Part shown: piece after piece, positions 8,421 through 10,204 of the stretch | How positions within the stretch are numbered: position 1 is the first letter of the stretch | Layout of the letters: the number at the start of each line of letters is the position of its first letter | From: Gammaproteobacteria bacterium | GTDB taxonomy: Bacteria > Pseudomonadota > Gammaproteobacteria > Steroidobacterales > MnTg04 | Direction of reading: 5' to 3' | Length of the DNA stretch: 40,104 nt | Assembly: GCA_036443455.1 (NCBI GenBank) | Contig: JAZFYI010000051.1 | Span: 1-40,104 of the forward strand | Program-made: the position numbers and the translations under genes | The notes under the pieces: model-generated | The model's input: the letters and a program-made list of their open reading frames with translations, nothing else | Databases searched by the model: none | Told to the model about the DNA's origin: nothing

Positions 8421-8449
8421 TTGTCGCGCGGGCCGGCTTCTGGTATTTT
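8421..8449 (+). promoter_or_regulatory. Putative sigma70 promoter for pyrG (TTGTCG-17 nt-TATTTT with TG extended -10)
   Basis: -35-like TTGTCG at 8421-8426, TG at 8441-8442, -10-like TATTTT at 8444-8449. Confidence 0.55.
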
Positions 8450-8509
8450 CTAGTACCGACCACATGGCTGGTTCGGGACCGGCTGAGAACAATCGCAGGT
8501 CTCGCTGTA

Positions 8510-8539
8510 GGAGTCTGAACAGGGCTCCAATTTTTTTTT
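8510..8539 (+). terminator. Intrinsic-terminator-like hairpin plus T9 in the pyrG 5' leader (possible attenuator)
   Basis: ggagtct/gggctcc stem (two G-U pairs) followed by aa and ttttttttt, ending 18 nt before the pyrG ATG. Confidence 0.5.
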
Positions 8540-8557
8540 CTGCAGCGGATTTTTTTT

Positions 8558-10204
8558 ATGACCCGATTCGTTTTTGTCACTGGCGGCGTAGTTTCCTCCC
8601 TGGGTAAAGGTATTGCGGCGGCTTCACTGGGCGCGATCCTGGAAGCGCGCGGGCTGAAGATCAGCATGATGAAGCTGGACCCGTATATCAACGTGGATCC
8701 AGGCACCATGAGCCCGTTCCAGCACGGTGAGGTTTTTGTCACCCGCGATGGCACGGAGACCGACCTCGATCTTGGCCATTACGAGCGCTTTGTGCGCACG
8801 ACCACGACCCGCGACAGCAATTTTACGACCGGCAAGATCTATGAGTCCGTGATCGCCAAGGAACGGCGTGGCGAGTACCTGGGCGCGACCGTCCAGGTCA
8901 TTCCGCATATCACCGACGAGATCAAGGAGTGCGTGCTGCTTGGCGCCGGCGATGCCGACGTTTGCATGGTGGAAATCGGCGGTACCGTTGGCGATATCGA
9001 GTCGTTGCCGTTTTTGGAAGCCATTCGCCAGCTCGGTGTGGAACTGGGCCCGGAGCGCGTACTCTACATGCACCTTACGCTGGTCCCGTACATCGCGACC
9101 TCATCGGAAATGAAGACCAAACCCACGCAGCACTCGGTCAAGGAATTGCGTTCTATCGGTATTCAGCCCGATGTGCTGGTTTGTCGTTCAGACCGTCCGA
9201 TCTCGGATGCGCAGCGGCGCAAGATCGCGCTGTTTACCAATGTTGCTGAAAAAGCGGTTATTTCCTGCGTGGATTCGGACGATATTTACAAGATCCCGAT
9301 GCTCCTGCATGAACAGGGGCTGGACGATATCGTCGCCAAAAAACTTGCACTCGATGCCGCTCCGGTCGATCTCAGCGAATGGCAGGCAGTCGTTGACGCC
9401 AAGACAAACACGGAAGCCGAAGTCAGCATCGCATTGGTCGGCAAATATGTGGATTTCAAGGATTCGTATATTTCGCTGAGCGAGGCGCTGACCCACGCGG
9501 GGATAAAAACACGCACTCGAGTCAATGTTCATTACGTCGAGGCCCACAGGCTGGACGATGGCGATATTTCTCCACTGGCGGACATGGATGCGATCCTGAT
9601 CCCGGGCGGCTTTGGCGAACGCGGCGTCAAAGGGAAGATTATCGCGGCACAATATGCGCGCGAAAACAACATTCCGTTCCTGGGCATTTGCCTGGGCTTG
9701 CAAGTTGCCGTGATCGAATTCGCCAGGAACGTCGCGGCGCTGGAAAACGCACACAGCTCTGAATTCGAAGCGGACACGCCACACCCGGTGATCGCACTGC
9801 TTACCGAATGGCAGGACCAGGGCGGCCAGATCGAGGAGCGCGACGAAAATTCGAATCTGGGCGGCAGCATGCGCCTGGGGGCACAGGAGTGCCGCCTGAA
9901 GACCGGTTCACAGGCCCAGCTCATCTATGGCAGCGAGACCATCATGGAACGCCATCGTCACCGCTACGAATTCAATAACACCTATATGCAAAGGCTGGAA
10001 GACGCGGGCATGGTGTTCTCCGGGCTGTCGGTCGACGGGCTGGTCGAGATGATCGAAATTTCCGAACATCCCTGGTTTGTCGCCTGTCAGTTTCATCCTG
10101 AATTTACCTCGACGCCGCGCGACGGGCATCCGCTGTTCGCCGGTTTTGTCAAAGCTGCGCGTGGCTTCCACCTCGAGCAGATGCCCGAGGCCGTACACGC
10201 GTGA
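8558..10204 (+). CDS. pyrG: CTP synthase
   Basis: [39 protein letters not shown] and QFHPE motifs. Confidence 0.99.

Follow-up and report, generated by a model that had tools for sequence, protein, structure and literature searches.

The window, i.e. the whole stretch of 40,104 nucleotides analysed here, carries the tilS gene (7041..8420; above the TIGR02432 cut-off) directly upstream of pyrG (8558..10204), which encodes CTP synthase and is followed by kdsA and eno. Both tilS and pyrG and all elements of the 137-nt gap between them are located on the forward strand. An earlier note on this DNA had proposed for the gap a -10 element, a start region at positions 6 to 9, three competing helices (P1, P2 and P3), a terminator-like hairpin and a T9 tract, and each of them was recovered at the coordinates given below. 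Elsewhere in the window, the dnaE reading frame (2442-5975) contains at 5500-5700 a near-repeat of the DnaE motif LGAIKGVGR(G/A)AL about 55 residues apart, which is either real or an assembly slip.

The stop codon of tilS abuts a -35 hexamer, TTGTCG (8421-8426), which was absent from the list of the earlier note. A spacer of 17 bp separates it from the -10 element TATTTT (8444-8449), which is preceded by a conserved TCTGG with the TG of an extended -10 (together 8439-8449) and aligns with the TATACT of Escherichia coli pyrG, whose starts have been mapped. The TTG of the -35 element is conserved at 0.89-0.95 in our class-wide model. With a weight matrix trained on the -35 to -10 stretch only, leaving out the start region, the pyrG promoter of the window scores 24.3 bits, compared with 9.9 bits for the 99th percentile of shuffled sequences. 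A plain consensus promoter scan listed no promoter and missed the TATTTT site. TTGTCG-17-TATTTT is a real promoter, and TATTTT is the sole TAnnnT in the gap (8421-8557), which rules out a pyrG promoter downstream of the hairpin. The hairpin can thus not be solely the terminator of tilS with pyrG transcribed from beyond it, a scenario that the earlier note had named among those refuting its own model. An upstream reading frame from the ATG at 8464 was rejected, because G003, one of the genus members, lacks it, its frame with respect to pyrG takes three different values among the remaining six, and no Shine-Dalgarno (SD) sequence precedes it. Four of nine RNA runs were compared with the window; all of them are contigs and display neither transcript starts nor ends. 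A break in the RNA contig cover at 8483-8568 (X5) stems from one run only and proves nothing.

The predicted start region comprises A6-C7-C8-G9 (8455-8458), with a predicted long transcript starting at A6 or C7 and a short one starting at G9. The class-wide search covered 161 genomes, and upstream regions were taken from the top of a ranking by similarity to the PyrG of the window, with about 50 further matches lying outside the sample. Our set of 138 pyrG upstream regions consists of 30 loci from the search for relatives, 28 further ones, 79 usable of 80 fetched and E. coli. A promoter above the 95th percentile of shuffles is present in 104 of them, and 94 were retained once ten close kin had been dropped. 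Position 7 is C in 77 and position 8 likewise in 77 of these 94 promoters, position 9 is a purine in 76 (G in 55, A in 21), and position 6 is distributed over C (55), T (16), G (16) and A (7). The promoter pattern conserved across Gammaproteobacteria (loci L008-L140; E. coli L061:500-584) reads TTG-17-TCTGG-TAnnnT, followed by C7 C8 R9 T10 C11. Strict TTG-17-TAnnnT sites are followed by C7-C8-R9 in 53 of 84 cases before pyrG and in 4 of 74 control sites, i.e. sites of the same form before long reading frames of the window's own genome, and one of these four is the pyrG promoter of the window itself; the corresponding p = 4e-15 overstates the difference, because kin are not independent and many control sites are chance occurrences. 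Five loci (L068, L100, L102, L104, L111) exhibit another conserved motif upstream of pyrG, TTGAAA ... GAAAACAACGAMAAT, sometimes followed by CCCR, which is perhaps another promoter type. At L129, a sequence that by eye resembles a tRNA apparently adjoins pyrG upstream.

The window promoter is accordingly of the sigma70 type with C at positions 7 and 8 and G at position 9, as in the start-site switch of pyrC and pyrD. In E. coli, whose pyrG promoter reads TATACT-GCTTT-CCCG, starts have been mapped at C6 (63 reads) and G9 (62 reads), and in Klebsiella pneumoniae at C6 (PMC3415461, supplement file 1). Section 3.4 of PMC7818426 reports that a knock-down of pyrF raises PyrG, and it describes the regulation of pyrG in E. 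coli as not fully elucidated while suggesting start-site switching like that of pyrC and pyrD, citing Turnbough and Switzer 2008. The pyrC-like start region proposed in the earlier note is thus borne out by the class-wide C7-C8-R9 and by the two E. coli starts. Judged from this sequence conservation, CTP is likely to be sensed at the pyrG promoter of the window by the choice of start.

The pyrC/pyrD-type switch has no purine start that is better placed than G9, its position 6 being a pyrimidine, and a purine at position 6 can dominate as start, beating C7 and G9. All seven genus members carry A6, and C7, C8 and G9 are invariant in all of them. Transcription starts most often at position 7, with positions 6 to 9 being usable, according to the relevant passages of PMC5730371. 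An A6 transcript takes C as its second and third base, so its start would itself be CTP-dependent. In the codBA and upp genes the second nucleotide is what is sensed. Their UTP-sensitive switching in E. coli operates between purine starts, as stated in the part of PMC12709180 that deals with these promoters. Leaders of more than 100 nt occur behind five of six A6-CC-R promoters compared with 5 of 43 C6 promoters, which suggests that A6 goes together with designs based on a 5' hairpin. In Woeseiaceae, A6-CCG heads a covarying alternative pairing (see below), which makes sense only if the start shifts, and this type of leader provides the strongest indirect indication of switching at A6-CCG starts. 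The objection raised by A6 is softened by the CTP requirement of bases 2 and 3 and by the covarying switch of these relatives.

The leader of the window is 100-103 nt long, compared with 47-50 nt for E. coli pyrG. P1 (8456-8476; CCGA(C)C with G(T)TCGG) is formed by the strands CCGACCA (8456-8462) and TGGTTCGG (8469-8476) with one bulged T, and its two outer pairs depend on C7 and C8; five of its six pairs are invariant in the genus, and the sixth is A-U in two and a mismatch in five of the seven members. P2 (8474-8504) pairs CGGGACC (8474-8480) with GGTCTCG (8498-8504) around an inner stem, and its outer three base pairs compete with P1 and P3; 97% of its cells are paired, with compatible one-sided changes at four pairs. 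The P2 loop GAGAACAA (8485-8492) is invariant in 7/7 although it is mostly unpaired, and no role was found for it. P3 had originally been listed as CGCTGTAG (8503-8510) with CTGCAGCG (8540-8547); the register of the computed fold is 8502-8509 with 8541-8548. It encloses the hairpin and the U tract and covers the GCGG of a weak SD-like GCGGA, which is followed by a T8 spacer (together 8545-8557) and whose GGAT is invariant in the genus. An RCGGA-like element is common before pyrG in relatives. P3 is paired in 95% of cells, with one-sided changes at four pairs and a shifted register in G003.

The overlaps between the helices amount to just 3 nt each, P1/P2 at 8474-8476 and P2/P3 at 8502-8504, so that P1 and P3 can form simultaneously with the inner part of P2. 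All four helices, including that of the hairpin, pair in the seven genus members, with 95-97% of cells compared with 27-47% when the partners are slid. The state with all helices has 95.1% of its cells paired and nine further pair types, the state with extended P2 96.9% and eight. The triplets of the putative relay, CCG at the 5' end, CGG at 8474-8476, YCG at 8502-8504 and CGG at 8546-8548 on the SD side, are compatible in 7/7, and every change within the shared 3-bp segments preserves pairing. The pairing is conserved throughout the genus, but there is no two-sided change in the leader helices among the seven sequences, which are 90% identical, and column shuffles thus do as well as the real alignment. 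A covariance model of the leader matched its seven source genomes and none of the 134 others among the 141 genomes of the order, i.e. the ensemble of P1-P2-P3, hairpin and U tract was found only in this genus. A metagenome scan recovered only near-identical copies (2 of 15 loci), and a scan of GTDB two that were already in the set (L167, L198). Rfam yielded no match at gathering score in the window, and two chance matches in 8380-8620 have E values of 0.6 and 6.6.

The terminator-like hairpin (8510-8528; GGAGTCT-GAACA-GGGCTCC) comprises 7 bp with -9.1 kcal/mol and a variable loop, and is separated by two nucleotides (AA) from the T9 tract (8531-8539), which has 7-9 T in the genus. Its stem is 100% paired in 7/7, all changes being confined to loop and wobbles, and the succession of hairpin and U tract, the signature of an intrinsic terminator, is conserved in the genus. 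The earlier note had taken this element for the switched output, the choice of start deciding via P1 and P2 whether the terminator at 8510-8539 forms. In favor of such an attenuator one may cite its conservation in all seven members, the oddity of a fixed strong terminator inside the leader of an essential operon, and the resemblance of related leaders of the same order to start-switched attenuators. The computed folds argue against it. The hairpin has no nucleotide in common with either strand of P1 or P2, nothing competes with it, and in transcripts that end at the hairpin it has a probability of at least 0.99 for all four starts in 7/7 genomes. To keep the 3' strand of the hairpin unpaired takes 6.3-10.2 kcal/mol, almost regardless of the start, and the start barely affects how far the 5' strand is paired while the 3' strand is still to be transcribed (0.37 to 0.51 in the window, no change in four genomes and a reversal in G005). 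The T tract precedes the 3' arm of P3, this arm being synthesised only when transcription has gone beyond the U tract, and no antiterminator from P1 or P2 was found in the computed folds of the genus leaders. We consider the attenuator improbable at this locus. On the basis of these folds the hairpin would rather be a fixed leaky terminator or a pause that also serves as a stacking scaffold for P3. A hairpin-stabilised pause awaiting CTP at C8540 was ruled out, because the spacing varies with the length of the T tract (7-9 T).

The other branch of the earlier model, the cascade from P1 via P2 and P3 onto the SD sequence, fared better. Direct pairing of the 5' end with the SD sequence is not a feature of this leader: the best duplex between its first 9 and last 28 nt has just 3 bp and -4.0 kcal/mol, and any coupling would thus have to run through P1-P2-P3. 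The cost of opening positions -20 to +3, computed with 3 nt of coding sequence, is higher for the A6 than for the G9 transcript in all seven genomes (+1.41 kcal/mol in the window and 1.22, 2.47, 0.79, 1.49, 0.72 and 1.89 in the others). The drop occurs between start 7 and start 8 in 7/7, e.g. from 7.5 to 5.9 in the window, from 7.7 to 5.6 in G002 and from 4.3 to 2.2 in G005. The sign is thus right throughout, but the effect is small. Shuffled leaders equal it in 9/60 cases for the window and in 0, 4, 5, 5, 11 and 20 of 60 for the other members; with 30 nt of coding sequence it is largely lost in four genomes, the window among them (0.05, 0.07, 0.18, 0.00), and persists in three (0.81-1.95). 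A measure restricted to the SD sequence gives the wrong sign in G003 (-0.59), and in the window P3 is mostly kept from the G9 start, its outer C-G pair declining from 0.98 to 0.85. A relay to the SD sequence is plausible in these models, with the right sign and a weak effect.

The mechanism that we tentatively favor, with a confidence somewhat below an even balance, is a CTP-dependent start whose 2-nt difference would be relayed via P1, P2 and P3 to the ribosome-binding site of pyrG and not to the hairpin. Its foundation is the sigma70-type promoter with A-C-C-G at positions 6 to 9. The conservation of these positions and the C6 and G9 starts of E. coli pyrG suggest that the start follows the balance of CTP and GTP, transcription probably beginning at A6 or C7 when CTP is high and at G9 when it is scarce. 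The long transcript is predicted to pair CCG (8456-8458) with CGG (8474-8476) in P1, which would free YCG (8502-8504) from P2 for pairing with CGG (8546-8548) of the SD sequence, and the resulting full P3 would lower translation. In the G9 transcript, CGG 8474-8476 would hold YCG in a full P2, leaving P3 without its outer two to three base pairs and the SD sequence easier to open. The computed gain of about 1-2.5 kcal/mol would make this a few- to ten-fold dimmer at most and not an on/off switch, with the hairpin and U tract presumably standing outside of it. Regulation by 5'-end stability was discarded, since P1 would be expected to protect the high-CTP transcript, which is the wrong sign. 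Slippage on C was rejected as well, with just two C's here and a slippage of only 10.1% at the CCC start of E. coli pyrG (PMC12709180, part on this promoter).

The most serious competitor is a leader in which nothing moves: A6 would be a constant start left by the decay of an ancestral CTP switch, P1, inner P2 and P3 would all form together, and the hairpin with its U tract would be an unswitched, leaky terminator, which would reduce the output of the pyrG promoter as well as read-through from accA-tilS. This would agree with the presence of A6 in place of the usual C6 (7 versus 55 of the 94 promoters), with a probability above 0.9 for the all-helix fold from A6 and with an interval between tilS and the promoter that is devoid of a terminator except for a weak 5-pair match; the smallness of the start effect, its frequency among shuffles and its near disappearance in the window with 30 nt of coding sequence point in the same direction. 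A decayed switch is difficult to reconcile with the invariance of G9 and both C's in the genus, with the step in opening energy between starts 7 and 8 in every member, with the association of A6 with long structured leaders and with the covarying A6-CCG leader of Woeseiaceae. We regard it as unlikely, if well worth reckoning with. A further possibility retains the switching start and makes P2 and P3 bystanders, the long 5' end pairing instead with codons 8-9 of pyrG (UGGCGG, about 8581-8586) and enclosing the start codon in a loop. Equilibrium folds that include 45 nt of coding sequence give the pairing of C8 with these Gly-Gly codons a value of 0.65 in the window, 0.84 in G006 and 0.99 in E. 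coli, and of more than 0.3 in 23 of 66 class leaders, but the value is at most 0.03 in the other five genus members, position 9 does not covary with the wobble base of the Gly codon (p = 0.49), and P1, being local, would form first. This reading is even less probable than the attenuator. The relay through P1-P2-P3 remains our preferred reading.

The leaders of relatives show how the same type of start may be connected to other outputs. In many members of the class, the 5' CCGTC pairs directly with a GRCGG at the SD sequence, in many cases enclosing a hairpin and U tract as P3 does, and 26 of 61 class leaders gain more than 1 kcal/mol compared with 20% of shuffles. The predicted partner of C8 in the class is located in the last 25 nt of the leader (22/66) or in Gly-Gly codons 8-9 (23/66), and rarely in both. 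Another A6-CCGTC lineage is represented by six metagenome loci (L143, L144, L147, L149, L151, L156), whose 5' end and the AGGCGG at the SD sequence pair and enclose a hairpin and U tract; the CGCAAG of this hairpin has in some of them a possible partner, CTTGCG, further upstream. Two further pyrG leaders of 187-189 nt (L166, L209) start with ACCGACCTG; in their predicted fold, the 5' end reaches across several hairpins to CAGGGTTGG, its partner at the SD sequence.

The GTDB scan for A6-CCG promoters provided 80 loci of 113 matches, with pyrG as the next gene in 43 of these 80. Thirty-three of these 43 leaders were chosen by the analyst for a CCGTC...GAYGG hairpin and combined in alignment A3 (L158, L164, L165, L168, L170, L171, L173, L175, L178, L180, L181, L188, L192, L195, L196, L199, L201, L204, L206, L210, L211, L213, L220, L222, L224, L225, L227, L229-L232, L235, L236); 21 of the 33 are labelled as Woeseiaceae or Woeseia. 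They share a P1 with a loop of 9-13 nt, followed by a long hairpin with a U-rich tail (at least 6 U in 9 nt in 29/33). In 29/33 by the analyst's count, the best partner of the segment that runs from G9 to the end of the P1 loop is the 5' strand of the long hairpin. This antiterminator helix has 81% of its cells paired, 11 cells with two-sided changes (reached by 2 of 500 shuffles) and a covariation of 0.144 (0 of 500), and the long hairpin nine pairs with two-sided changes, all of these values being inflated by kinship. The mean antiterminator pairing rises from 0.44 with the A6 to 0.63 with the G9 start, by more than 0.05 in 21 of 32 leaders and with a fall in two. The Woeseiaceae-type leader is thus a candidate start-site-switched attenuator, in which P1 would hide the antiterminator strand, and as far as these models go the attenuator of the earlier note fits this neighboring, mostly Woeseiaceae family and not the window locus. 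The tail is followed by a YCCG that hardly varies and could also pair, either with GACGG once this is free or with the SD sequence. L014 and L023 are likewise candidates for start-switched pyrG attenuator leaders.

The regulation of pyrG in Gram-negative bacteria is still called not fully elucidated (PMC7818426, section on pyrG). The earlier note claimed too much novelty in this respect, since start switching of E. coli pyrG has already been suggested in print (PMC7818426, section 3.4) and the start-site sensor as such is thus not new. A described leader of the window's form was not found in the literature searched, including the pertinent parts of PMC13328217, PMC4491880 and PMC8812562, nor was pyrC-type start selection joined to attenuation; the review by Turnbough and Switzer 2008 may say more on E. 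coli pyrG. The class-wide C7-C8-R9 turns the E. coli suggestion into a general, testable rule, and the leaders of the order indicate how 2 nt more or less at the 5' end can act on either translation or termination without a protein. If true, these readings would make the genus leader a natural RNA relay of several steps and the Woeseiaceae-type leader a combination of pyrC-type start selection with attenuation; without a real relay, the window would represent an ordinary member of the suggested mechanism in a small uncultured genus. A broader proposal, which we rate as possible but rather doubtful, is that A6-C7-C8-G9 is a protein-free CTP sensor wired to three outputs within one gammaproteobacterial order, namely direct 5'-SD pairing, the relay from CCG via CGG and YCG to the CGG of the SD sequence by which the 2-nt difference would take effect 90 nt further downstream in the genus, and the start-switched attenuator of Woeseiaceae with an antiterminator hidden in the P1 loop. 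What tells an A6 from a G9 start would be nucleotides 2 and 3 of the transcript, and the U9 tract of the window might provide a further, independent gate that responds to UTP.

Among the known systems, pyrC and pyrD of E. coli and Salmonella combine CTP/GTP-sensitive start-site selection with a 5' hairpin that sequesters the SD sequence (PMC6524683, part on these genes). The window resembles them in C7-C8-G9 after a sigma70 -10 element, in two extra 5' C's that are predicted to hide the ribosome-binding site and in the predicted lower expression at high CTP. It differs by the A instead of a pyrimidine at position 6, by a 5' end that does not pair with the SD sequence itself and is predicted to act via two intermediate helices over about 90 nt, and by an anti-SD helix that encloses a hairpin and U tract. 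E. coli pyrG has the orthologous promoter and gene, the same spacing of -35 and -10 and CCG at positions 7-9, whereas its leader is devoid of P1, P2, P3, hairpin and U tract. The codBA and upp genes of E. coli share the purine-to-purine switching by a pyrimidine pool that A6 versus G9 would need, but in their case the switch leads into unproductive reiterative transcription on an initial T tract, which is missing here. The pyrG attenuator of Bacillus subtilis, which operates by reiterative transcription, is listed in Rfam under the name "pyrG leader", whereas the leader of the window matches none. Both have a terminator-like hairpin in the leader and, as predicted for the window, a protein-free sensing of CTP at initiation before pyrG (PMC7039003, part on the attenuator). 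In place of the GGGC start of B. subtilis, the window has ACCG (8455-8458) and hence no slippage on G, and the antiterminator pairing of the 5' end with the 5' strand of the terminator hairpin, which is absent from the window, has its counterpart in form in the leaders of the Woeseiaceae type.
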